A stretch of 64,000 bases of DNA from contig CM068764.1 of NCBI GenBank assembly GCA_035084275.1, positions 7,750,001 through 7,814,000 on the forward strand, in the 5' to 3' direction. Below the pieces are notes generated by a model. It ran no database searches, had not been told where the DNA came from, and saw only the letters and a program-made list of their open reading frames with translations. Origin of the DNA: Hydrolagus colliei (taxonomy: Eukaryota). The position numbers were made by a program, and so were the translations under genes. This document shows positions 590 to 55,770 of the stretch, piece after piece (position 1 is the stretch's first letter; every line of letters starts with the position of its first letter).

Positions 590-1060
590 CTGGAATACAG
601 ACACAAATTTCCACGTCGCGACATACGTAGCCTTCTTGTTGGATTGTCCTGCAACAATCCTGTGTTCGATACTGAGTCTTTTATATCAAAGGGCGTCCGC
701 CTGACGTGAAAGTTGCTCTATAAATGTAATTTTGTTTGTGGTTGTTGTTAACGAATGACTGATTTTATCTGGGGTGGGGGGGGTGCGGGGTGGGCGATTG
801 TGGACCTAATGGTGATCGACAATCACAGAGCTGTAGTGAATTTTGGATCTCGATTCTTCAGATCATCACCCAGGTGCCTAATAAACACTGCAACCTTGGT
901 TCATTCTTCAGATCACACCTGAAGACCTTCCTCTTCGACTGTGCTGACAGACACCCCCCACTCCCCCGTCATCACCCCACCCAGCTCAGCGTCAGACTCT
1001 GCCACCATTTAGCCCTCAGAAACACACAGCGCCTTAGGACGTCCTCCTGACCTGATAGGT

Positions 1061-1240
1061 AACAAAAACAGAAGTTGCTGGGAACACTCAGCAGGTCAGG
1101 CATCATCTATGGAGGAAGGAAACGTGAGTCAACATTTCGGGTCCGTGACCCTTCGTCAGAACACCAAGGATGATCGTCCCGAAACGTTGACTCACTTTTG
1201 CTTTCTCCATAGATGCTGCATGACCTGTTGGTTATTTTGT
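1061..1240. mobile_element. Palindromic Penelope-like (PLE) terminal-repeat remnant with hammerhead-like core
   Basis: Inverted arms caggtcaggcatcatctatggag...gtgagtcaacatttcggg / cccgaaacgttgactcac...ctccatagatgctgcatgacctg; CTGACGA...GAAA on - strand. Confidence 0.65.
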
Positions 1241-1278
1241 TGTAATTTGTCGGGAAGCTGGTGTCGTCGATGCCTTAC

Positions 1279-1444
1279 CTGGGTGCTCTCATCGTGGAAC
1301 CCATCGAGGAAACTCTCCAACAGCTCATCTGCGTTGTCAATCCTCTCCGCGTATTCGCCCACAATCCAGATCATGGCCGCTCGGGCATCGGGCTCGTCGA
1401 GGGAGTCCAGGTTCTCGCATAAGGTGGCTATGATACTCTCGTAC
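1279..1444 (-). CDS. AP2B1: AP2B1 exon 11 ([55 protein letters not shown])
   Basis: 166 nt, AG/GT boundaries, frame-consistent with neighbours. Confidence 0.97.
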
Positions 1445-1580
1445 CTAACGGATCAAAGCGAGAGACTGTTTCAATCAGAGCAACGTTACTTTCCCCCCAC
1501 CTTACTATTCTACTGCAAAATAAGGAATGGTGAGCCCATCATCTTTTCTAAAGGCCGGACAGGGGACAAGGAGTGAGCGC

Positions 1581-1869
1581 AATAATAATAATAATAAATT
1601 TGAAAAAATGCTTTTCAAATCTTATCGACGTCTCAAAGCGCTTCACAGAATATACCGTAAAGTGAATTGACTGCATATTTGTGGACGAAACGCGGCAGAC
1701 AATTGCGCACAGCAGCGTTCCCCCCCACAAACACTCGTGGATTGAAATGACCAATTTTCTTAGTGTGGGTTTTTTCGGACAGATTATTATTAGGCGCGCG
1801 TGTGTGTGGAGGAAAGAAACTTTCCCAAGGTTTCGCCCTGATCTGCCCGGATTCGAACACAGGTCTCAC
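1581..1869 (-). mobile_element. SINE copy (same family)
   Basis: Core, B-box remnant and (ATT)n tail on - strand. Confidence 0.85.
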
Positions 1870-2067
1870 GACGTCAGGGTTGGGCTGTTGCAATGTACCA
1901 CCCAGTCCAATAGTTTTCACACTTGCTAATTAATAAAGGTCTCTTGTCCGAGGGAATCGAAGAACGCTCTAGATCAGACAGTTACATCACCAGATTGAGA
2001 TACTGTCGGTCAGTAGGTCTCTTCGTTCAGTTTCTCTCTTTCCTGAGGAACGAAAGGCCCTACTTAC

Positions 2068-2183
2068 TTGTTGGGGTACTTGCGGAAGATGTCCCTGATG
2101 ACCACAATAGCTTCCTGGACCACATAGTTGACTTTAGTCTGGATGAGATCGAGCAGAGTGCTGACACAGCGCTCGGCCGATTG
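2068..2183 (-). CDS. AP2B1: AP2B1 exon 10 ([38 protein letters not shown])
   Basis: 116 nt, ccccag| and |gtaagt. Confidence 0.97.
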
Positions 2184-2334
2184 CTGGGGATCACAACAAG
2201 ACTCGATTAGCCCCACAAGGTTCATTCACGCTTTTCTATTCAATCAGTCAAGTCAGCTGTGAGCCAAAGCAAATGAGGGGAACAGGAGCAAATAAAGATA
2301 GATACTTTTGTGCCCCTTCATTACCCTCCATCAG

Positions 2335-2840
2335 ATAAGAACATAAGAACATAAGAATAAGTAGCTGGAGTATGGCCAGTCAGGCAATTGAGCCTGCTCT
2401 GCTTTAACTCCATATCCCTTAATCCCTTTATCCATAAGAAATCTATCAATCCCAGTCTTGAATATGTTCAAAGACTGAGCATCTACAGCCCTTTTGGGAG
2501 GTAGAGAATTCCATAAATTCACTACTCTCTGAGGGAAGAAGTGTTTCTTCAACTCTGCGCAAAAAGGCTGACCTCCTAATCTTAAAACTATGACCCCCTA
2601 ATTATAGTTTCTCCAACTAGGAGAAACAGTTTCCCGCTGACTACGCTGCCATGTCCCTTCTAGGTTTCTATCAGATCACCTCTAATTTTTCTATATTCTA
2701 GAGAATACAGGCCAAGTTTACTCCACCCATCCTCATAGCTCAACCACCTCATCCCAGGAACTAACCTAGTGAATCTAAGCTGTACCCTCTCTGAGGAGAG
2801 TATGTCATTTCTTAAAAAACGAGACCCAAACTGCAAGCAC
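2335..2840 (-). mobile_element. CR1-type LINE 3' fragment
   Basis: ORF2 C-terminus (RFTRLVPGM..LSYE...LGLYSLE.R.IRGDLIE; FFPQRVVNLWNSLP..AVDA.SLNIFK..IDRFL...GIKGY) and (TTCTTATG)n tail. Confidence 0.9.
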
Positions 2841-3377
2841 GGAAGGCTCTTGACGAAGAGAAGCATTTGGCAGCCTGTTGGAATGCACTGAGCGCCAAAT
2901 GAACCCAAACAATTTACATTTTTGCTGCTAGCTCTCATCTGTTTCCTACAGCAGGAGTAAGCGTGGCATCTATCCAGCCAAGGACTGTTTTGAGGGCTGA
3001 CTGTTCCCAGTGACGGTTTAACTCCACACACAGAAACACACACACATACCCCCGAGAGAGTTTTTTTTAAAAAAAATATTAGCTTGACATAAGAGGGAGT
3101 GGACGCAGAACCTTTGAGTCATACGTTCACCCAATTATTGTAATTCTAAGCACCAAATTGTCAGTTCCGAGCTATTATCTGCCGCATTCAACCAGATCAA
3201 ACACGGCCAACTGTCCCATCAGTGGACCTCACGCAGTGCAAAGGCTCAACAGCTCCAAGTCTCTTGAAACTCGTTACCATGTGCCTCAGTTTCCAGGTTA
3301 AGAGGACAGTGAACACACAGACACACACACACGCACACAAAACCCCAATTATCAGAGGAGAAACAGAGGCAGCTGAC

Positions 3378-3473
3378 CTCAACTTTGATGGCACATCGGC
3401 CGATGGCACGCACGGCCTTCCTCACAAAATCGACGTCGACCTCGGTGGCGTACTCCTTCAGCTCGGCCAGGAC
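3378..3473 (-). CDS. AP2B1: AP2B1 exon 9 ([32 protein letters not shown])
   Basis: 96 nt, canonical splice sites, ORF track 3246..3518. Confidence 0.97.
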
Positions 3474-5227
3474 CTGAGGGGAAACGAGAGGCGTTGAGTA
3501 ACCAAGATATCGTGGCATCTACACCCCCCGCACAAATGATAACAACAAACAAACAAACAAACAAACAACAACAAAATTACATTTATAGAGCGCCATTCAC
3601 GTCGGGAGGACGGTCCCAAGGCTCATCTCCATAACCTAAATGTTTACAACCAAGGGCACTTATACCCAAGCCACCAACACACGCCTGGTACCATTACCAC
3701 CGCTGGTCGTTCTCAATCCCGCGCTTTCACGTGTTAACACTCATCAAGGACGACTTTCTAGAGATAATGATTGCGGCAGGCAATTGCGCACAGCAGCGTT
3801 CCCCCCACAAACAGTCGTGGATTGAAAATGACCAATTTTATTACTGTGGTTTTTTGGGGGACAGATTATTATTAGGCGCGTGAGGCGAGGAATCTTGCCC
3901 AAGTGACTCGAATGGTCATCTGTCCCGCACACACGGCTGACACGCTCCGAAACATACACGGCATGACAGACTGGTAAAACGAGGGGCTCATAATAATGCC
4001 TTTCATTTTGTTTTCTTAAGACGCACAACTCAAATTGCGAGGATTTGTACCTCGCCCACAGAACACACAGTCAATTCACTATAAAGTGTATTCCGTGAAG
4101 CGCTTTGAGACATCGAGAAGACATATGAAAGGCTATATGAAAGAAAGGCTATCATTATTATTATTATTATGATTATTATTAAGTGAATTCGACTTGACAG
4201 CTCGTCTTCAGCACACATATCTTAGCGGGTTGGAGCCTGTGATAAGCCTGTATTGCACAAACCTCGGTTGCTAGGCTACCAGCTGGAAAAACATCAAACA
4301 CCTGAAAGGCTAAACTAATATTTATTCGGCATTTTCAATACAGGGCTAATTTCTCCGGAAGGGCGCTTGCAGCAATCCTATTAATCCTCCGGACTTTAAT
4401 TTGTCTCTTTTGACTGGCGCCTTTTGGAAACCTGACAAGATTAGGAGCCGACCGGAGTGCCTGGGGGCACGCGATTGGCAAATCCAACAAGCCCGGGCTT
4501 GGTGGATCTCTCTCTCCGCAAACGGTTTTGTGCACGTCAAGATGACCCAGAAGGTCTCCCGGCATCGTCGAAACATTCCAGAACAAGCCTCGCATCAATT
4601 GGCTAATTTCTCTCGCTCTCTCTCTCTCTCTCCACCCCCCCCCCCACACACACACACACACAAAATGTCTAGGAGAGAGTGAGGCGCTCTGAATTAAAAA
4701 CAGAGGTGAGACGAGGGAGCCACAAATACTGGAGTGATCAGATCAGCACATTGTAGAGGCTAACACATTAATATAGGTGTTTGCTCTACTATATTTACAG
4801 GATGCTCTTGCACACAGAGAGGGAGAACAACAGCAAAAGATATCAAAAGCCCAGACCCCAAATTATCCCCAATTCATACTTAAATCCATAAAATCATGAC
4901 TTCATGCGTGCCCCAGCATATCCAGTCTGTGATGAATCAATCTGACAGGCAACTGAGAGATGCCACACAATAGACAATGACATTTCTATAGTGCCTTTCA
5001 TGGCGGGAGGACGTCCCAAGGCACTGGACAGTTAGGGATATTGACCAAGATTGGTGGGGGTTGGTGGAGGGAATCGCAGCTGCCTCACATTCTAGACCCT
5101 TCCCGCTTAGCGCCAGAGTCCTGACGTTTACAAGAACAACAAAATGGCATTGATAGAGCGCCTTTCACGTCGGGGGGACATCCCAAGGTGACAATGGCCA
5201 CTCTGACCCTGTCTGCTAGGAGCTGAC

Positions 5228-5348
5228 CTGAGCAATGTTGGCCTGGGAGGCCAGACGGATCATGATGTCCAGCTTCTCCAGTTTCACGTAGATCGGGTCG
5301 TTGTACTTGACAAAGAACACCTTGATCTCCTGCTTCAGGATTTCAGGC
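5228..5348 (-). CDS. AP2B1: AP2B1 exon 8 ([40 protein letters not shown])
   Basis: 121 nt, cacag| and |gtcag. Confidence 0.97.
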
Positions 5349-5489
5349 CTGTGGGGAAGAAGGAAGAAACTTCAGAACACTCCGGAGCAAGTAATACTCG
5401 CGAAGGACAGGCCTGGGAGTCCGTTACAGCACGTAGAATGTGTAATTTAACCAAACTTCACTCGATAACTTTTGATAATAAAAATCACT

Positions 5490-5776
5490 ATCCTTGTATT
5501 TGTTATAGCGCTTTTCACGTCTTCTAGACGTCTCAAAGCGCTTCACAGAATATACTGTAAAGTGAATTGACTGTATATATGTGGGAGAAATGCGGCAGCA
5601 GTGTCCCACAAACAGTCGCAGACTGAAATGATCAATTTATTGGGGGGGATGGATTATTAGCAGGCGTGTGGAGGAAGGAAATTTGCACAAGGTTTTGCCC
5701 CTGACTTGTTTTGAATTGGACCCAGGTACTCTCACTTGCAAAGCGAGTGCTCTAACCACTGAGCCACAGGGACTCC
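5490..5776 (-). mobile_element. SINE copy, near full length
   Basis: tRNA-like head to tail. Confidence 0.85.
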
Positions 5777-6184
5777 ACGAATGGGGATTATCACAGCAGG
5801 GGAGGGGAAAGCTGAGAGTTTGCCAGAGAAACATAACGTCTCAGAGTTAACACTTTCCTATTGTCTGAGTGAAGTGATGCAAAACAACAAATTACATTTC
5901 GTTAGCGCCTTTCACGTCAGTGGGATATAACAACAATAATCCTTGCATTTAATAATAGTGCTTTTCACGTCTTCTAGACGTCGCGAAGCTCTTCACAGAA
6001 CATACCGTAAAGCGAACGGATTGTATACTTATGGGCGAAACGCAGCAGCCGATTGCGCGCACGGCAGCGGCCTCCCACCGACGGCACGGTTACAAATGTC
6101 CCTAAAGTGAGAATCTCTAAAGCGCTTCACGGTGAACTCGACCGAGGTCGATTTCCCCCCCTTTCGCCCTCGTCGCCCGCTCAC

Positions 6185-6406
6185 CTCTTCTGGACGATGA
6201 GGTTGATGTTCCTCAGAGCCACGTACTGCACCTCGGGCTCGCCGGAGAGCAGGGTGACCAGTGGCGGGGCCAGCTTCTTCAGGATGGTGTTGTAGTACTC
6301 CGTCTCCTTGGGCAGGAGCTCGATGAACTTCATCAGCACTTTGACGGCGGAGAGGACGACCGCAGAGTTGGCGTGGGACAGGCGCGGAGTCACCCGCTCG
6401 CAGATA
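6185..6406 (-). CDS. AP2B1: AP2B1 exon 7 ([73 protein letters not shown])
   Basis: 222 nt, phase 2-2, canonical sites. Confidence 0.97.
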
Positions 6407-6890
6407 CTGAGGTACGGAGAAAGGGTTCGAGCGTAAGATTATAATGCTAGTTACTAACAACGCTTGCGTTTGATATCGAGCCTGATCACGTCATTGAGAC
6501 ATCTCAAAGTGCTTGACGGAATATACTGTAAAGCGAAATAACCGTAGTACATTTCGTAGCCAATTGCGCACAGAACGGTCCCCACAAACACTCATGGGAT
6601 TGACTGACCAATCTATTTAGCAGAAGGAATCATTACCCACAGAAATCGACCCGCCAATCGACTAACAAGCGGGTTTCCTACTTACTGTTAGGTAAACAGA
6701 GGCGTCTGGATTAAGGAAAGTGCGTTGGCCATGAATCGAACCTGCTTGCTTGCGAGTGCTCTAACCACTACACTACAGGACTCCACACTGCGCTTCGTCT
6801 GCGCCTATACTTATCCAATCTTAATCAAATCTACCACTTTCCCTGAGCGCCCCACTCTGGCTCAGGCGGCCACACACAGCGCTGGCTCAC

Positions 6891-7081
6891 CTCTGTGCCT
6901 CGCGCTCGTCCTTGGGGTTGTAGTTGGACAGGCAGTCCAGGATGAAGATCTGCCCCCACTCAGTGCACTCGTTCAGAGCCGTGATCAGCTTGTTGATGTT
7001 CTGCGGGTTCAGATCCAGCAGGTTGCTGTTTGGGTGAGACTCGCTGATCTCAGACAGGGCAGCCACAGCATTCGCCACCAC
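6891..7081 (-). CDS. AP2B1: AP2B1 exon 6 ([63 protein letters not shown])
   Basis: 191 nt, ccttag| and |gtgag. Confidence 0.97.
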
Positions 7082-10000
7082 CTAAGGACAGGGAGATCAT
7101 AATAATAATTCTCATCTCCGAGACGTCTCAAAGCACTTCACAGGACATACTTGTAAAGTCAATCGACTGCGTATTTTGTGGGCGAGAACATAAGAATTGC
7201 AAGGTTCATCCAGTTCGCCTTCCACCATCTTGGCAGTCGAACGTAGACTTCAAATCGCAAACTACGCATGATATTATTTCCTAAGAGAAAAGTACCTCAT
7301 TAGCTTTTGAAAGATTAAAAACAAATTAAACTCAACTGAAAATAATAGTTCGTTCCAATACGATGACGTTACATTTTACGCGGAACGACTTAGGAATGGC
7401 ACGGAGTCACTGGATGGCAGACTCACTGAGGCGTGGGCGATGAAAGTACCAGATTATTCTGCGCTGATTAAGATTATCCCACATTAATCAGATCTACCAT
7501 CTCTGGTTGATTTGATTGAAGAGCAGATAATCGTGTGCTTTCATCACCTGATACCGAGCGAGTGGGAAGCGACGGGGGGGGGGGTGGGGGGGGGCAGACG
7601 GAAGGCAGTCAAAAGCGCAGCGGGTGAGGTAGGCTTTTAGGAAAGCCGGTCTCAGGGTGCAGGAATTTGGGGAGAGAATTCCAGAATGCTGGATCATTGC
7701 TGTCCCAAGCTCAGCCACCAAGGGAAGTGCAGCAGTCGACAAGCTCGGCTCAGAGAGAACAGAGAGAGTAGGTAAATAATGAGCAGAATAATCCTTGCAT
7801 TTGATATCGTGCCTTATCGCGTCTGTGAGACGTCTCAGAGCGCTTCACAGAACGTACTGTAAAGTGAACTGACTGCATATTTTGTGGGCGAAACGCAGCG
7901 CGTCAATTGCGCCCAGCAGCCTCCAACAAACGGTCGTGGATTGAGTGACCCGAATCATTACGCATTTTTCGTTTGTTTCATTGAAGACTGACGTGCATCA
8001 GCTGCATCTATCTCTCTCTCTCACAACATACATACGCACACACACACTCTCTCCCCCCTTGCCACACGTTCTCTATGACTTGGCAGAAAATTGATTGAGA
8101 CCCCCGAAAGAATAATAGCACAAACTCAAATCAGTCACTCCAAAATCACCCAGTACTGCTCACCCCACAAGCACCTGCAGCTGACTTGACAGCCCCTTTC
8201 GATCGACTCGCGCCAACTAAACATACTGTTTATTCACTCTCCCTAGCGAAAGTGTTAACCTATGTGTTAAGATGCAGCCAGGCCTGAAAACATTGGCGGT
8301 AATAGGATATCCCTGGGCCAACTGCCCGCGGCTAATCACTTCGGAGCTAAAATTGAAGGCGTTTCCGAAAATGCTCGCAGAAGTTTTTCCCTCTTGTGTG
8401 AGAGGCGCTATCTCTCGCAGTAAATTGCTGCCGTTCCATCCAGGAGGCTGGAAGGGGTGAGGAATTGATTGCGAAGGCAGCTGCCTTCCATCCGGCCTGC
8501 TGAGTATTCCAGTCACAAGTGCAAACGTAAACCAAGGCTGATCGATTCCACCGTTGCGCTCGTTCCTTAAGTTTCCTTTACAGTACGTTCCTTGAGTTTC
8601 AACTCCTTTGAGAATCGGCAAGGATATCTTAGTTCCCAGACGCGACTGCATTGGGTCGTCTTAAAAGTCGAGAGCTAAGCTGGCTCGAAAAGAAGTCAGA
8701 TAAGAATTTTTCCCGCCCGCTCGCAGAAAGTGGATGGGTTGCCAAATCTCTCAGTCAAGTATAATAGGATTAGAGGTCTTCAACACCCGCTGGACAAATT
8801 ACACACACTAAAAGGTTCACGTCGAAGTGCCAGGGGAAAAGAAAAAAGCCGCTCTGCACACCACCGCGAGTGAAAAAAAAGGTAAAACAGGAAGGAAATT
8901 TGAATCCACGCAACAAACGACAGCCTTGACGTTCCTCTTAAGTCAATCGATCACGGCAGATAGGACCTAAAATGAGATGCCCTGTAGAATCGATAAGTGC
9001 GCAATGCTTCCAACGGGAGCACAGAGTAGGACGTAAATTGCACCAATGGAACAAGACTCAAGGCTGCGCGGTCAAATCTTTGGAAGCAAGTGTTATAGAA
9101 TCGCTAAGGAAATGATTCAAGCAATCAATGGGTTGAAACAACATGGATGTATTTTAAGAGACAACCTCGAGGACCGGCTGGTCGTTTCACCTAGAGATAC
9201 AACTCTCTCATACACATGCACACACACAGGTGATCGCTCTCGATTACACAGCTGTTTACGCGCAGCCAGTAAAATCGTTAAAGCCAGCCTTTTAATAAAG
9301 CATAGTGCTTGTATTTGATATCATGCTTTTCACATGGCTTTTAAAACCAACACAGAATGGATTAGCATTGAAAGCTAAAGCCTCCAAATACCGTTCACTG
9401 ATCTGGACAGTAATAACTCGCAAAGCAGGTTAATGCTAGGATTGGTGCAACAATAACGCGAGGATTATTGCTATTGTGTTCTTAGAAAATCCAAGTCATT
9501 GTGGGAGGTAAAGAGAAACGAAACGCTTGGGAAGATGCTAATAGCAGCGAGAGAATATTACCACAGCAACACAAAGCTCCGAGAGACCCAAGGTTTATAG
9601 CTGCATAAACAAAGCAATTCCTTTTAGATAAAAGGATTAATGAATGATTCCCCAAGTTCGTGGACAAACAGTACCATCTAGTGGCAGTGGAAGCAACGTT
9701 ACAATTCTGGAACCATTGCTAAACACAATGCAGTGGATTCATTATTTTGCCGAATGGGTTACAACCTCAACTCTATATTCCGGGAGCAGGATTGGATTTG
9801 AGCACGAGCGGAGACCGGCAGACAATAGATTGTCTGAGGAGCCCACGACAGGTTTGATCAGTGAGTGACCCGTCGCCACAACTTCTGCTATTGCCAAACA
9901 CCTCACCTTCAGCCTCTTCCCAACGTTAAATAGAAAGGGTTGGAATGAAATAAACTGGCAAGACGGAGGGATTGAGGGTGAGGGGGTTGGGAAAAGAGTG

Positions 10001-10174
10001 TTCGAGGGTATCGTGGCTGCAAGCGAATCCGTGCTTAAGAGATAACAGCCAGTGCTTGAGTCGCTGTGCAAACGCAGTATGAGAGATTTAAGTGGTTTGC
10101 CTTGTAGTCACACAACCGAATGTGTGCGTGTATCTATGTCCGTCCGCCTGTAAACAGATAGGTGCGGTGATTAC

Positions 10175-10420
10175 CATGGGGTTGGAATCAGCGATCAGGT
10201 CCCGCAGGGAGTCGAGGAAGCCCTGGTCCTCCACCATCTGGGCGTTGATGTCGTGCAGTTTGGCGACGCACACGGCGGCGGTTTTACGCACGTACGGGTC
10301 CTCGTCCTTAAGACACTTGCGCAGTGGCTCGCACAGGTACTCGGTGATCTTGTCGACACGGATGCATCCCATGGTGCGGACGGCCAGGGCTCGGATCAGT
10401 GGGTTGGGGTCCTCACAGTC
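10175..10420 (-). CDS. AP2B1: AP2B1 exon 5 ([82 protein letters not shown])
   Basis: 246 nt, phase 0-0, canonical sites. Confidence 0.97.
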
Positions 10421-10862
10421 CTGTCGAGGAAACAGGATGCGTCATTAAAACCGCACAACTCCTTCCGGATGCGGTGGTTAAGGCAACTCTTGTGTTCGAT
10501 ACAATGCTCGTCACTTGGGGAGCGAACATCTCAAAGCCTCTCACAGGATTTACTGTAATAACAACCACCACATTATACTTGTACAGGGCCTTTCTGGACA
10601 GGAGGACGCCCCACAAGGCGCTGTGTAGTGACTCAGTGACTCGCCGCAAGGAATAAACATGCAAATCCAAAGTCAGCTCTCAAACTCTCGATGGTGCTTT
10701 TGGGGAATGTATTGAATGAAATAACAATTTTTTAAAATAATAATAATAATCCTTGCATTGGATATAGTACCTTCGCCCGTCTTCGAGGCATCTCAAAGCA
10801 ATTCAACGGGATGCACTGTAAAATAAAGCTAACTGACTGTAGATTTTGTGGGCGAGTGTTAC

Positions 10863-10998
10863 CTTGACAAAGCTGTTGACAGCCATGATGGCCATGTCGG
10901 GTTGGTTCTTGGCATAGTTCATGAGGTAGAGATACACAAGCTTCTTCAGCTCCAGGTTGTCCGTCTGCATACAGTTCACCACGTCCGGGAAGAGAGAG
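10863..10998 (-). CDS. AP2B1: AP2B1 exon 4 ([45 protein letters not shown])
   Basis: 136 nt; NSFVK is beta-2-type (beta-1 has NTFVK). Confidence 0.97.
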
Positions 10999-11230
10999 CT
11001 GCGCAAAACACAGAGAAGACGGGATCTGCTTAGCTCCGCCGTGAACAGTCTTAAGTGGCGGAGGGAGAGAGAGAACTCTTGGCGCACTATCTCAGCATCA
11101 GCAGGCTCCCTCCCCTTCCTCCCCCACTCCATAACCTAACCCACCCACAACAAACCAGCCTGTCAAAGCTCCTTGCCTGTCTCACTTGGACATAGAGCCA
11201 TTCTCTGTCCAACATGTTGTCCCATCAATC

Positions 11231-18105: not shown

Positions 18106-18562
18106 GTTCCGGAAGGAGAATTTAACCCCGGGGAGGAGGGGGGGGGGGGGTGGTGGTGGTGGGAGAGAGAACAAGGGGGAAAGAAAGAACTCGCGGACGC
18201 ACTGAGACAACCAAACAGCGGCGGCGAAAGGGGGGAGATTTCTAGACGGAGACCAGGAAGTGTTTCTTAACCGGGAGGGTAATGAATGGATGAAGCAGAG
18301 ACATCTATCATCCTGTCCCTGTGAGGGGGGTGGGGGGGGGGGGGAGGAGACACTAACACTAGCCCCAGTGAGGGTGTGAGGGACACTGATTGATTGCCCC
18401 GCGGTGGGGGGGAAGTACCCTGTGTGCTGACAGTCGCGGCTGCCGGGTGAGGGCGGCTGTGGAGTGGAGGAGGAGGGGGGGGGGGGGGGGGGGGGCGTGT
18501 CGGTGGCTACTCGAGGCCGAGGCTCAGGCTGCGGTTGAGGCCTCGGGCCCAGGGCTCAGGCG

Positions 18563-18685
18563 ATGGCGGAGCGCGGAGCTCACCTGACGGCGTCCGTCAG
18601 CCCCGAGCGGCCCAGCATCTTCGAGTTGGCGGCTCAGGACACGCTGCTGGCGGCGGTCAGGCCCGCGGCCCGGCACATCAGCAAG
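18563..18685 (+). CDS. PEX12: Peroxisomal biogenesis factor 12, exon 1 ([41 protein letters not shown])
   Basis: Recognisable PEX12 N-terminus (GAHLT...PSIFE..AQD); aag|gtcagg donor. Confidence 0.96.
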
Positions 18686-19000
18686 GTCAGGCCCGGCGGG
18701 GGGGGGTGGGGAGGGGGGGGTCAGGCCCGGCGGGGGGGGTGGGGAGGGCGGAGGGGGGGGTCAGGCCCGGCGGGGGGGGTGGGGAGGGCGGAGGGAGGGG
18801 TCAGGCCAGGAGGGGGGGGGTGGGGAGGGCGGAGGGGGGGGGTCAGGCCAGGAGGGGGGGGTGGGGAGGGCGGAGGGGGGGGGGTCAGGCCAGGAGGGGG
18901 GGGGTGGGGAGGGCGGAGGCGGAGGGGGGGGGGGTCAGGCCAGGAGGGGGGGGTGTGGAGGGCGGAGGGGGGGGGTCAGGCCCGGCGGGGGGGGGGGGGT
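18686..19000 (+). repeat. G-rich minisatellite, ~8 units of ~34-50 bp (ggtcaggcc[c/a]gg[c/a]Gn-tggggagggcgga-Gn)
   Basis: tcagg recurs at about 18687, 18721, 18761, 18801, 18843, 18884, 18934, 18976. Confidence 0.92.
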
Positions 19001-19074
19001 TTCAAGGCTCCACAGTAGGAGCCGGGATACAGCCCCCCCCCCCCCCCCCTCTCCCTCAGGGAGCCTGTTCCTTA

Positions 19075-19499
19075 ATATTAATAATAATAATAATAAACCT
19101 GGCATTTTGAGAGAGAGTCCGATCACTTTGTCTTCGAGACGTCTCAGAGCCCTTCGCAGACTGTAAAGTGAATTGACTGTATATATATATCTGTGGGCGA
19201 AACGCGGCAGCCGATTGCACCCAGCGGCATGTTCCGTCCCCCCCCCCCCCCCTCCTTCCCCCCCTCTTTCCCCCCCTCGCGCACGAACAGTCGTCGATTG
19301 AAATGACCAATTTCATTATTGTGTGTGTGCGTGTGTTTTTCTGGAAGGATTATTATTAGGCCTGTGTGTGTGTGTGTGTGCGCGTGTGTAAGTGGAGAGT
19401 AAGGAAACTGGCCCAAGGTTTCGCCCCCAGATGTGTCCGGATTCGAAACACACGCTGTGTAAGGCGAGTGGCTCTAACCCACTGAGCTGCGGGAGCTCC
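19075..19499 (-). mobile_element. SINE copy in PEX12 intron 1
   Basis: Head, core and tail of the family. Confidence 0.88.
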
Positions 19500-19579
19500 T
19501 TTGGTTCGACAGTTTCCAACAGCAGCGACTTTTGCCGTACGCGCCGCGCTTACCAGACGCTTCTCCGTTTGTGCTGCAG

Positions 19580-20130
19580 GTGCTGGCCGAGTCCAACCCT
19601 GGCCGCTACGGCTCGTTGTTGCGATGGTTCGACGAGCTCTACACGGCGCTGGACCTGCTGCTCCAGCACTACTGCCTGTTGCGGACGGCCGCCTCCTTCT
19701 CCGAGAACTTCTACGGCTTGAAGAGGGTCCCCCCCGGGTCGGCGGGGTCCCCGGGGCTGGCTTCCGGCGGGCTCCCGGCCGCCCACCACCTCCGCTCGCT
19801 CCTCCTCCTCGTCCTGGTCCCCTACCTGAGGGTCAAGCTGGACAAGCTCTTCGGCCGGATGAGGGAGGAAGAGGATTACGCCATTCGCCTGCCCGCCTCT
19901 CGCCGCCAGCGCTTGCACCGAGCCTTTCTGGCCGCCTACCCCTACCTGAACATGGGCTGGGAGGGGTGGTTCCTGGCTCACCAGCTGCTGTACGTGTTCG
20001 GGAGGGCACGGCACCACTCGCCCCTGTTGAGGCTGGCCAGGGTCGTCTTGGTGACTCTCTCACCCGCGGACCTGCTGGATATGGAGCAGAGGTCCTCCTC
20101 CGCCAACGCATCACAGCCCGGGGGGAACAG
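19580..20130 (+). CDS. PEX12: PEX12 exon 2 (VLAESNPGRYGSLLRWFDELY...ASFSENFYGLKR...HHSPLLRLARV...PGGN)
   Basis: 551 nt, tgcag| and |gtaaag; Pex2/Pex12 N-terminal domain motifs. Confidence 0.96.
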
Positions 20131-20605
20131 GTAAAGCAAGGGCTGCCATTTTATTTTCACGACCGCCTTACAACAACCACAACCACAACTTGCATTTATA
20201 ATGATCCTTGAATTTCAATAATAGTGCTTTTTCACGTCTTCTAGACGTCTCAAAGCGCTTCGCAGAACATACCGTAAATTGAATTGACCGTATACTCGTG
20301 GGCGAAATATATAGCGACCACAATAATACAACAACAACTTGCGTTTACATAGCACCCTCTAGGGCGGGCGGCATCTCGGAGAGCTTCAAGGTAGAGGTGG
20401 AACACAGACTAGAGGCTTAGAGGCTGGACAAACAGTGGGAAGTTTGCCTGACATTGCTCTCAAGGATATGTTACGTGGATTTAGTTGGTGATATGCGAGC
20501 AGTTATCCGAGCTGTGGGTAGGAATTAGGAGGGGGGAAGGAGGAGGAGGGCAGGGTAGGAAAGCTGAAGGCAGTACCTGGATTAATAACCCTTCGTCTCT
20601 TTCTG

Positions 20606-20637
<32 letters not shown>

Positions 20638-20638
<1 letters not shown>

Positions 20639-21037
20639 GCAATTGAACAGCTGACCTTCTTCTTCCGCAATGCCTTTGGACGTATGGCATCTTCCCTGTC
20701 CACCGGCCTGGCCATGGGTGTCTTCTTCCTCCAGTTCCTGGAGTGGTGGTACTCGTCGGAAAACCAGGAGACAGTGAAGTCGCTGTCAAGCCTCCCGACC
20801 CCTCCGCCCCCAGTCCACCTCGACGGGTATCTGGCTCCCACGGCCTTGCCTGCCCTGAAGAGCCTCTGCCCACTGTGCCGCAAACACCGGGCCAACCACA
20901 CCGCACTCTCCACCTCGGGCCACGTCTTCTGCTACAGATGCATCTACGCCCACGTCAAGCGCCATCAAAGGTGCCCGATGACTGGCTACCCTTCGGAGCT
21001 GCAGCATCTCATCAAACTCTACTCCCCCGAGAGTTAA
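20638..21037 (+). CDS. PEX12: PEX12 exon 3 with [12 protein letters not shown] segment and degenerate RING finger, stop TAA; total CDS 1074 nt = 357 aa
   Basis: (CT)n tract + cag| acceptor; CPLCRK...VFCYRC...CPMTGYP..LIKLY; frame-consistent with exon 2. Confidence 0.97.
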
Positions 21038-40361: not shown

Positions 40362-40492
40362 NNNNNNNNNNNNNNNNNNNNNNNNNNNNNNNNNNNNNNN
40401 NNNNNNNNNNNNNNNNNNNNNNNNNNNNNNNNNNNNNNNNNNNNNNNNNNNNNNNNNNNNNNNNNNNNNNNNNNNNNNNNNNNNNNNNNNNN
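40362..40492. other. Assembly gap, 131 N
   Basis: Run of N. Confidence 0.99.
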
Positions 40493-40517: not shown

Positions 40518-40755
40518 ATCCTGTGTTTTGTCTGCGGGGCGTCCGTGTCTGCCGTTCCAGGAGTCTGCCTTGTATCCATTCTGCCGGAGGGAGTCTGTTC
40601 TGCGTGCGGCCGGCGGTGGGGACTGGCTAGCGCTGGAGCTGGGGCAGCACGGCTTGCGTCCGTTGGCGTCCTTCTTGGGGTTTTGCCGGGAGCCGGCGCC
40701 GCGCCGCTTGCTCTTGCCGTGGGCGGCCCTGCGCTCCGAAGGCGGGCTGCCACAG
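40518..40755 (-). CDS. SRRM3: SRRM3 exon (CGSPPSERRAAHGKSKRRGAGSRQNPKKDANGRK...RQNGYKADSWNGRHGRPADKTQD); last clearly visible exon
   Basis: (CT)n tract + ccag|, |gtatgt donor, phase 2-0; loosely matches the SRRM3 RLSPKHRDEGRK...PPD exon. Confidence 0.8.
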
Positions 40756-46103: not shown

Positions 46104-46184
46104 CGGCTTCTGTAGTGTCCAGACCTTTTCTTCTTTTTCTTTCTGGGCGGAGGAGAGGCAGAACTGCTCGATTTCCTCTTCAGA
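46104..46184 (-). CDS. SRRM3: SRRM3 81-nt exon (LKRKSSSSASPPPRKKKKKRSGHYRS)
   Basis: (CT)n tract + gacag|, |gtaggt; matches SSSSASPPPKKKKKKKGGHRRSR. Confidence 0.92.
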
Positions 46185-49983: not shown

Positions 49984-50140
49984 CTATCCACTACTCCTGC
50001 CTCCTCATCCTTTTTGACTAGTGCCAGCCGAGCACTGTGCTTCAGTGGAGAAGCACGGCCATCTGTGGCCACTTTCTCCCTGTCCCTTGTATCCATTCTT
50101 GTTCTCATTAACATCTGCCATCTCCCGGGTCTTGTGAACA
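49984..50140 (-). CDS. SRRM3: Probable SRRM3 exon following cwf21 (VHKTREMADVNENKN...); 3' boundary uncertain, frame disrupted as assembled
   Basis: Strong pyrimidine tract + cacag|; start resembles SRRM2-family VTETHQLAELNEKKN; in-frame TGA at 50005-50007 precedes the best donor. Confidence 0.55.
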
Positions 50141-50840: not shown

Positions 50841-51851
50841 CATTACTTATATGTTGCAGATTGAGCGAGCATCCAAAGGCATCTGGTCTATCCCAGGCAG
50901 CAACAATGCGCAAATATCAGTACGTTGCCCAAAGTGAAGACTTATTACTAATCCTGAATCGCCCACGGCTCGGTGCTGGTGACTGGAGAACGGGTTTGTT
51001 TTTGACTATTACTGAGGCCTATGTTCTCAGGCCGAGTCTTTGCCTCAACAACAACAACAAAGTAAAGAATGTCAGAGTAGTAAACCCAGAAGACACAGCC
51101 TGCGATTGAAGGGAATCGGCCTAAATACTATTTGAGTGAGCAAATAGCGAACGTGTGGGAGATGGCAATCAGCCTCCACAGAATACACAGTCACTTCACT
51201 TTACAGTATATCCAGTGAAGCGCTTTGAGATGTCACGAAGACGTGATGAGGCGCTGTATCGAATGCAAGGATTATTCTCATTATTACTATTAGTAATAAG
51301 TCGATAATAATAATTACATTTTGAAATATTTATTTTAACAACAGACTACACTTGGGTCGTCATTGGCTTGTCCAAGAAGAAAAAACACACAACCACACAC
51401 ACACACCCAAACATACACGCGCACACACACACACACACACACACACGAGCTCTCAATCTAGTCCTGAGCAGAGCAGTGATTTCACAGCTTCACAATATCC
51501 TGCTTGGTTGATGAGGGCCAACAAACATCCTCCATTTTACTGCTTAGCACATTCCGAGACAGACAGACAAACAGACAGACACACACAGACTCCACCATAG
51601 CATTCAAGATCTGCTGGTCCCTCAACAGATATTACTCGCAGGAAAGAGACTGATGGCGGGGAGTGAGGAGGGGGCCGAGGGGGGAATGGGGTGGAGGGTG
51701 AGAAATTAATGGATTTCTCACGGGAGAAAGCTAGGTTTGCTATAGATGTCTGAGTGCTGGGGGTGGGGAGGGTGAGGAGGGTAACGAGTTGGGGAGTGGG
51801 AGGGGGGGGGTGGGGAGGAGGCGCTCGGTGTGTGTTAAGCCATCCACTGAC

Positions 51852-51964
51852 CTGCTTGTGAGAGCAATGTCACTGGCCACCTCCCCGGCCTGGCTCTCTG
51901 TCTCTGGAGCCTTTCGCAGCCTCTCGGGGAACTGCTGTTCACCGCTTCCTCCTGTCGCAGGCAT
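51852..51964 (-). CDS. SRRM3: Putative alternative first coding exon of SRRM3 (MPATGGSGEQQFPERLRKAPETESQAGEVASDIALTS), SRRM4-exon-1-like
   Basis: gccATG start, open frame, cag|gtcagt phase-2 donor; upstream sequence looks like a 5' UTR/promoter. Confidence 0.5.
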
Positions 51965-53166
51965 GGCTGATAGGGTCTGTGCACAGCTGGCACCGGGAGT
52001 CACTGACATTCACGCACGCAGGGGACAGATGCAGCGAGAGCGAGAGCGAGAGAGAGAGAGGGAGCGCGCGAGAGGCTGCCAGCGACACCGCAAATCCCTG
52101 CTCTCATTCACAGTCTGGTTGTCATGGTGTACGACATGCTGGTAATTGTGCAGAAGCGCACAGCCCACCTACACCCACATCCACACCCATACACGCACAC
52201 ACACAGTGCTGTGTAGCCGTGCTGGTGTTTTGCCCCACATACACAGACACAGACTTCACACCAGTTTCAACAGAGTGAGCATCTCTTGGGGATTTGTGAG
52301 GGAGGATTTATTCTGTTGACATTTGGGTGTGAGGAGATTTCTAGAAGCTTTCTCTTTCTTTCTCTCACTCGCTCGCGCTCTCTGTCTATCTCGCCCACTT
52401 CTCTCCTCCTCCTCCTCCTCCGTTCCACTCCACATTGTCTAGCCATCTTCCACTGATGGATGGTTCCCTGCTGTTCAGAGCTTTAATAGACTCCAGCGTC
52501 ACATACAGCCAGATAGTGTTTAGAGATGCAACACTATCCATTTAACCATGACAAACAGGCATCTTTTTAAACAATAGATTTCTAACAGCTGTGTATGTGT
52601 GTCTGTGGAGGGGGGAGGGGGAATGGGATGGATATTTGGTTGTGGGGGGGAGGGGGAGTACAGGGAGGCATAGCCAAGGTAGACTGCTTGCAAAACGTGG
52701 ATTGTGGATCACCAGATTCACAGCACTCAGGATCGGACTGTTGTAAGCCCATTGATATACAGTATATCAATGTGCTCTTCAAAATGGGGGGCAGAAGGCG
52801 AGTGCGGAAAAGACCGACCGTGCTCACTTATCCTGCGCGAAAGGTGCTAGACCAGCATTTCACCCACATATATACAGTTGGTTGACTTTACAGCATATTC
52901 TATGAAGCGCCTGGAGACGTCTCGAAGACGTGAAAAGCGGTATATCAAATGAAAGGATTATTGTTGTATTATTAGTTCTTTTTTAAAAGCACCTTTCATG
53001 TCAGTAGGACATGCCAAGCCGCTGATCCTGCAGTTACGCACTCTGGGACGCACTCCCTGCCTGAGATGGGGCTATATAAATAGTTGGGGCAAGTTGTTGT
53101 TGTTTACCAGCCAATTAACTGCAGAAAATCAATACTCTAATGAGCAAAAAAATGCAAACACTCCAT

Positions 53167-53187
53167 TTCAGCACCATGGAGAGCAGC
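53167..53187 (+). promoter_or_regulatory. REST/NRSF binding site (RE1/NRSE) TTCAGCACCATGGAGAGCAGC
   Basis: Both half sites (TTCAGCACC, GGASAG) with canonical 2-nt spacer; lies inside SRRM3. Confidence 0.8.
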
Positions 53188-55668: not shown

Positions 55669-55770
55669 ACGTTGGGTCCGTGGGAATCCTCTCTGGTCAG
55701 CACTCCTTCCTTTTCCATCAGCATTTGCCGAAAGGTGCCGACTTTTTGGCGAATCTCTTCCAGAGTGTAG
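55669..55770 (-). CDS. SRRM3: SRRM3 cwf21-domain second exon (YTLEEIRQKVGTFRQMLMEKEGVLTREDSHGPN); preceding coding exon not found in window
   Basis: 102 nt phase 2-2, tttcag| and |gtaagt; nearly identical to SRRM3 YSEEEIRQKVGTFRQMLMEKEGVLTRED. Confidence 0.96.

Follow-up and report, generated by a model that had tools for sequence, protein, structure and literature searches.

SRRM3 and SRRM4 are master regulators of neural microexons. In the chimaera Hydrolagus colliei, the intron following the cwf21 exon of SRRM3 raises the question of whether this gene possesses a second, internal start resembling that of SRRM4. We analysed a window of 64,000 nucleotides (GenBank assembly GCA_035084275.1, contig CM068764.1, positions 7,750,001 to 7,814,000), in which SRRM3 lies on the - strand, together with genes that, by their translations, look as if they encode an adaptor-complex beta subunit (~1000-11100, -), PEX12 (18500-21030, +) and an SRCR-domain protein (36680-36900, +). 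The SRRM3 gene model and the possible splice partners of an internal start are as follows:

G000:C31:7825840-7826087, outside the window: first cwf21 exon of SRRM3
55669..55770, - strand: exon 3 of SRRM3, which encodes the second half of cwf21 and is in phase 2 at either end
50010..50140, - strand: doubtful exon with an acceptor at 50140 and a 44-codon open frame, end approximate
46104..46184, - strand: first well-supported downstream SRRM3 exon and likely splice partner, phase 2
45163-45134, 43849-43781, 42331-42296, 41722-41672, 41405-41298 and 40755-40518, - strand: six further SRRM3 exons

The exons in the window rebuild the SRRM3 protein of Callorhinchus milii, with 283 of 319 aligned residues identical to the current model (P0134, XP_042194502.1). 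Both this model and an older one (P0241, XP_007894873.1) splice exon 3 straight to the exon matching 46184. Our gene model ends at 40518, before the eMIC exons, as does the current C. milii model, whose last exon is the same. Runs of N occupy 40362-40492 and 37755-37954, and the depth of contigs from the DNA run X1, which behave as genomic DNA, drops from ~25 at 54 kb to ~4 at 39 kb, fitting a sequencing drop-out. A search of the whole assembly for the 3' exons of SRRM3, including the eMIC, found none, the only eMIC there being that of SRRM4. In holocephalans the 3' end of SRRM3 is probably difficult to sequence. The last eMIC exon is present in the older C. milii model. As for the exon at 45163-45134 (-), it comprises 30 nt behind an AAG acceptor with a poor pyrimidine tract and is part of the C. 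milii model. The Narcine isoform P0233 and many models of bony fishes and frogs lack it, and it is possibly a self-regulated small exon. Elsewhere in the genome there are three other cwf21 matches (G000:C21:10722328, C18:18682525 and C17:585042), two of them over the Pfam cut-off.

Intron 3, between the exons at 55669 and 46184, contains the following elements:

51852..51964, - strand: candidate alternative first coding exon, opened by gccATG and made of 37 codons plus 2 nt (113 nt), phase 2
51846..51851, - strand: splice donor GTCAGT (phase 2), read as CAG/GTCAGT
51965..52009, - strand: upstream in-frame ATG with a weaker context, which could add 15 residues
52031..52421, - strand: simple repeats of the CT/CTCG and GGA/GA types, a putative promoter or 5' UTR

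The gccATG at 51964, the 37 codons and the phase-2 donor are all found as the initial annotation had claimed, and the cwf21 exon (55770-55669) indeed ends in the same phase. With an approximate donor matrix, the candidate donor ranks fifth among the 584 GT sites between 55668 and 46185, and its 9-mer is the donor 9-mer of the SRRM3 exon 41405-41298. Protein and DNA searches found the candidate exon as a single copy in the 1.0-Gb assembly; a repeat origin was rejected. An internal cassette exon was also considered and rejected, the sole pyrimidine-rich acceptor within 750 nt upstream giving a frame with stops. One contig of run X1 carries a G>A change at window position 51900, by which codon 22 of the candidate encodes Ile in place of Thr (T22I). 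It is the sole difference from that run listed inside the exon, in a listing that omits 6 differences over the stretch covered.

The sequence upstream had been described as promoter-like between 52.0 and 52.4 kb. Its repeats are present (CT/CTCG at ~52075-52031 and GGA/GA at ~52421-52348), but there is no CpG island at the candidate start (observed/expected 0.34-0.56). The SRRM4 start of the same genome is also CpG-poor (observed/expected 0.14-0.35). Besides the in-frame ATG at 52009, several out-of-frame ATGs precede the candidate, none of them mentioned in the initial annotation.

Splicing in frame into either the 50140 or the 46184 exon had been proposed, of which only the latter stood up well. 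Joined to the 46184 exon and the six further exons, the candidate opens a 242-residue frame, in which 181 of 204 aligned residues are identical to C. milii SRRM3. The exon at 50140 offers only two weak phase-2 GT sites inside its 44-codon open frame, does not match the profile of bony-vertebrate SRRM3 exon 4 and is missing from both C. milii models, which makes 46184 the safer partner. Its comparison with SRRM4 exon 2 gave p 0.12. The stretch 50140-50010 (-) sits where bony vertebrates have SRRM3 exon 4, an exon that may be lost or dying in holocephalans. With its start-codon context, open frame, strong donor and in-frame partner exon, the candidate is, judged from the sequence, plausible as an alternative first exon.

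How closely does this exon follow the layout of a genuine SRRM4 start? We located the SRRM4 gene of the same genome through its eMIC exon and then found its first exon:

G000:C28:6351911-6352041: SRRM4 exon 1, ACC-ATG, 131 nt, phase 2, ending in AGCAG/GT

The phase-2 first intron that the initial annotation gave for SRRM4 is thereby seen in this genome. The candidate and SRRM4 exon 1 share an RCC-ATG start, a phase-2 end and the AGCAG/GT boundary, and the candidate, like an SRRM4 first exon, is ATG-initiated and lies upstream of Lys/Ser-rich exons. We scanned 648 kb of the SRRM3 and SRRM4 regions on both strands for an ATG followed by 28-50 open codons and a phase-2 GT. Among the 2241 stretches obtained, 15 have a donor as strong, 6 of which also have a purine at -3, and only two additionally have GCC or ACC before the ATG, of which one is the candidate and the other the true exon 1 of SRRM4. 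Because the candidate itself served to set the cut-offs and the stretches overlap one another, this rarity is suggestive and does not amount to a p-value. The layout argument for a predicted SRRM4-like start holds; the own-genome SRRM4 exon 1 and the scarcity of stretches combining these signals strengthen it.

The same scan also feeds the most serious alternative, that an intronic ATG and donor resemble an SRRM4 start by chance and caught the eye of a reader primed for one. Per 9.5 kb, ~0.09 stretches with an equal donor and a purine at -3 are expected, or 0.22 without the -3 rule, which counts in favour of a chance look-alike; it would nevertheless have to combine these signals on the right strand and in the right intron, along with a decoy rank in the top 1-3% (see below). 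Neither does the phase match say much about descent, because phase 2 is shared by almost every SRRM3 intron in this genome. This favours a real internal first exon that arose independently in the SRRM3 lineage, in the intron where cwf21 can drop out in frame.

In the sequence itself, the claimed peptide homology fared poorly. SRRM4 exon 1 is highly conserved, with 73-98% identity among the 120 listed of 131 matches, and the copy in this genome is 98% identical to that of C. milii. Against a profile of 39 distinct exon-1 peptides cut from 103 of these 120 proteins, a comparison set in advance as one of the refuting tests, the candidate peptide scored no better than shuffled sequence (0.2 bits, with 566 of 5000 shuffles scoring as high). 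Decoys from introns score up to 8.7 bits. Local peptide alignment gave p 0.26. In the global alignment, which needs three gaps, 11 of 37 residues are identical (p ~0.05), and the FW core is missing in the candidate. When the candidate was compared by tblastn with the 200-kb SRRM4 locus, SRRM4 exon 1 was absent from the best six matches, and SRRM4 exon 1 searched genome-wide matched itself only. Comparison of the non-coding SRRM3 intron and SRRM4 upstream region gave at least 40 matches, and those listed all belong to one dispersed repeat. We consider the peptide homology between the candidate and SRRM4 exon 1 weak.

Alignments anchored at the ends gave p 0.03-0.10 under four scoring schemes, with 19-69 of 2239 decoys as good. 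A GE-Q--E start and an AGCAG end lie at matching distances from both exon ends. At the DNA level, codon shuffling gave p 0.09-0.13 globally (874 of 10000 shuffles reach the score) and 0.18-0.77 locally; under base shuffling 282 of 10000 reach the score of the candidate, which ties for third among 837 stretches. The end-anchored likeness is thus borderline. If the exons are homologous, little is left in the peptide of the constraint by which SRRM4 exon 1 stays almost unchanged, and the main effect of the candidate would be the removal of cwf21 and a second point of control.

These comparisons bear on every alternative. A likeness that is borderline or absent in peptide and DNA is what a chance resemblance predicts. 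First-exon signals that are stronger than the sequence likeness would suit an independent origin within SRRM3, which we regard as unlikely given the equally spaced GE-Q--E start and AGCAG end and the decoy rank in the top 1-3%. The strong divergence from SRRM4 exon 1 could also mean that an ancestral first exon of the SRRM4 type has fallen out of use and survives as a decaying relic. The change at 51900, which alters an amino acid, and the lack of a good donor in the next putative exon (50140) are consistent with such decay. An unused exon would, however, not be expected to keep its ATG context, frame and donor since the vertebrate genome duplications, and we hold this last reading to be very improbable.

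A further element of the locus is the site for the repressor REST that had been noted upstream of the candidate. Together with related sites, it is placed as follows:

53167..53187, + strand: RE1/REST motif agreeing with the core at 13 of 14 positions, antisense to SRRM3, 1.2 kb upstream of the candidate ATG
G000:C31:7827268-7827350, sense to SRRM3: two RE1 sites 62 bases apart and a lone left half-site, ~1.2 kb upstream of the exon-2 ATG
G000:C28:6316533-6316553: RE1 antisense to SRRM4 and 35 kb upstream of its start; the intronic SRRM3 site is likewise antisense to its gene

We used an RE1 consensus of two half-sites with a 2-base spacer. The motif at 53167 is present on the + strand as described and beats the genome control: genome-wide, 19 sites fit the strict pattern as compared with none for the reversed control. 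Sites that agree at 13 of 14 core positions are expected 0.03 times per 124 kb. Three of the 19 lie at SRRM3 or SRRM4, two in SRRM3, the motif at 53167 among them, and one 35 kb upstream of SRRM4. A looser pattern with two mismatches is not significant, since 27 of 100 shuffles match too. One of the sites upstream of SRRM3 exon 2 has a perfect core. The RE1 at 53167 is therefore real as a motif, and REST control of the candidate promoter is a prediction from it.

The intronic RE1 does not require a second promoter, because two more sites lie upstream of exon 2. In the parts of the literature consulted, SRRM3 is described as a known REST target (PMC4459148), including Srrm3 in mouse (PMC7652395), so that a third RE1 in the gene is no proof of a second promoter either. 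If the candidate resembles an SRRM4 start by chance, the intronic RE1 would simply be a silencer of the ordinary SRRM3 promoter, alongside two others; its position only 1.2 kb upstream of the candidate speaks against this. Outside the motif, the RE1 flanks of SRRM3 and SRRM4 show no likeness by eye, as expected of independent origins.

Searches for relatives of the candidate exon returned nothing that would identify an orthologous protein, which again agrees with a chance resemblance. A word-index search restricted to proteins of 71-2000 aa gave 13 candidates, none at E<=10, and comparison with 1.84 billion representatives, behind which isoforms can hide, gave no match at E<=0.001. The ESM Atlas gave no usable match for the candidate or for SRRM4 exon 1 and was uninformative. 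Among 30 SRRM3 clusters, none of the 116 non-representative members matches the candidate or the SRRM4 profile. All but 4 short fragments (112 members) contain cwf21 and start upstream; because cwf21 served to select the clusters, this speaks only weakly against an annotated form that is common. The metagenome scan for host contigs recovered two loci only, both with invertebrate-like cwf21 exons (L035:378-449 and L036:593-670). These exons appear to end where SRRM3 exon 3 ends, which suggests that SRRM3 intron 3 is ancient. In the parts of the literature searched, no internal SRRM3 promoter is described. Weighing all this, we regard a chance resemblance as somewhat improbable, while giving it serious consideration.

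What is observed is the context of the ATG, the frame, the donor and its matching phase, the RE1 motif and an SRRM4 exon 1 of like layout; from there we tentatively favour, at a probability just under even, a REST-repressed first exon driven by an internal promoter and sharing ancestry with SRRM4 exon 1. A promoter at ~52.0-52.4 kb would start the transcript, REST would repress it outside neurons and release it in neurons, and the donor at 51852 would be spliced to the 46184 exon. The product would be a cwf21-less SRRM3 laid out like SRRM4, and this short form would presumably end in the eMIC. The eMIC is described, in the consulted parts of one study, as required for the regulation of microexons and sufficient for it (10.1101/2022.04.02.486809). 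Together with the last eMIC exon of the older C. milii model, this makes it conceivable that the short form acts as a microexon regulator. The candidate and SRRM4 exon 1 would then descend from a common source, possibly from the same ancestral exon.

If so, the N-terminus regarded as specific to SRRM4 would be older than the duplication that gave rise to SRRM3 and SRRM4. The ancestor would have possessed two REST-guarded starts, one for a protein with cwf21 and eMIC and one of the SRRM4 type; SRRM4 would have kept only the second, and the chimaera SRRM3 would still use both. We find this history possible, at rather less than even probability. Internal promoters that drop a domain are common, and the mechanism is therefore not new; the evolutionary link would be. 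Provided that the exon is both in use and homologous, two isoforms already existed, and SRRM4 came about by retaining one of them and did not invent a new start; SRRM3 alone could then make an SRRM4-like protein. Such a form would bear on the srrm4-mutant zebrafish, for which the consulted parts of a report give no evident phenotype (10.1101/2021.09.08.459463).

The closest known system is SRRM4 exon 1 itself, for whose protein a figure legend in the same report names an 'srrm4 specific' N-terminal domain (10.1101/2021.09.08.459463). Beyond the shared RCC-ATG start, phase-2 end and AGCAG/GT boundary, it resembles the candidate in length (131 and 113 nt), in the CT/GA repeats upstream and in having an upstream antisense RE1. 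It differs in that only 11 of 37 residues are common, a likeness that is not significant by profile, and in that its RE1 lies 35 kb from the start as compared with 1.2 kb. With canonical SRRM3 the contrast is one of starts: all 112 cwf21-bearing cluster members, a sample biased by the cwf21 selection, begin upstream, and none has the candidate exon.

In mouse, a gene trap of Srrm3 in intron 3 is described in the consulted parts of two studies (10.1101/2022.04.02.486809; PMC7652395), of which the latter finds that it lowers Srrm3 expression effectively in the inner ear. The trap sits in the intron equivalent to that of the candidate. This effective knockdown would count against an internal promoter; conversely, a real internal promoter would bear on the completeness of the trap. 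An alternative mouse Srrm3 promoter able to bypass the intron-3 trap was reportedly described by Nakano et al. in Cell Rep in 2019. If a mouse internal promoter has already been published, what is new would be limited to the homology with SRRM4 exon 1 and to its age.

Finally, the invertebrate Srrm234 gene gives rise to eMIC and non-eMIC forms from a single gene, according to the consulted parts of two studies (PMC10551640; 10.1101/2021.02.24.432780). As would be the case for the candidate, one locus thereby provides several domain combinations under neural control. The invertebrate switch is an alternative last exon that turns the eMIC on or off, whereas the candidate in the chimaera SRRM3 would be an alternative first exon that turns cwf21 on or off.
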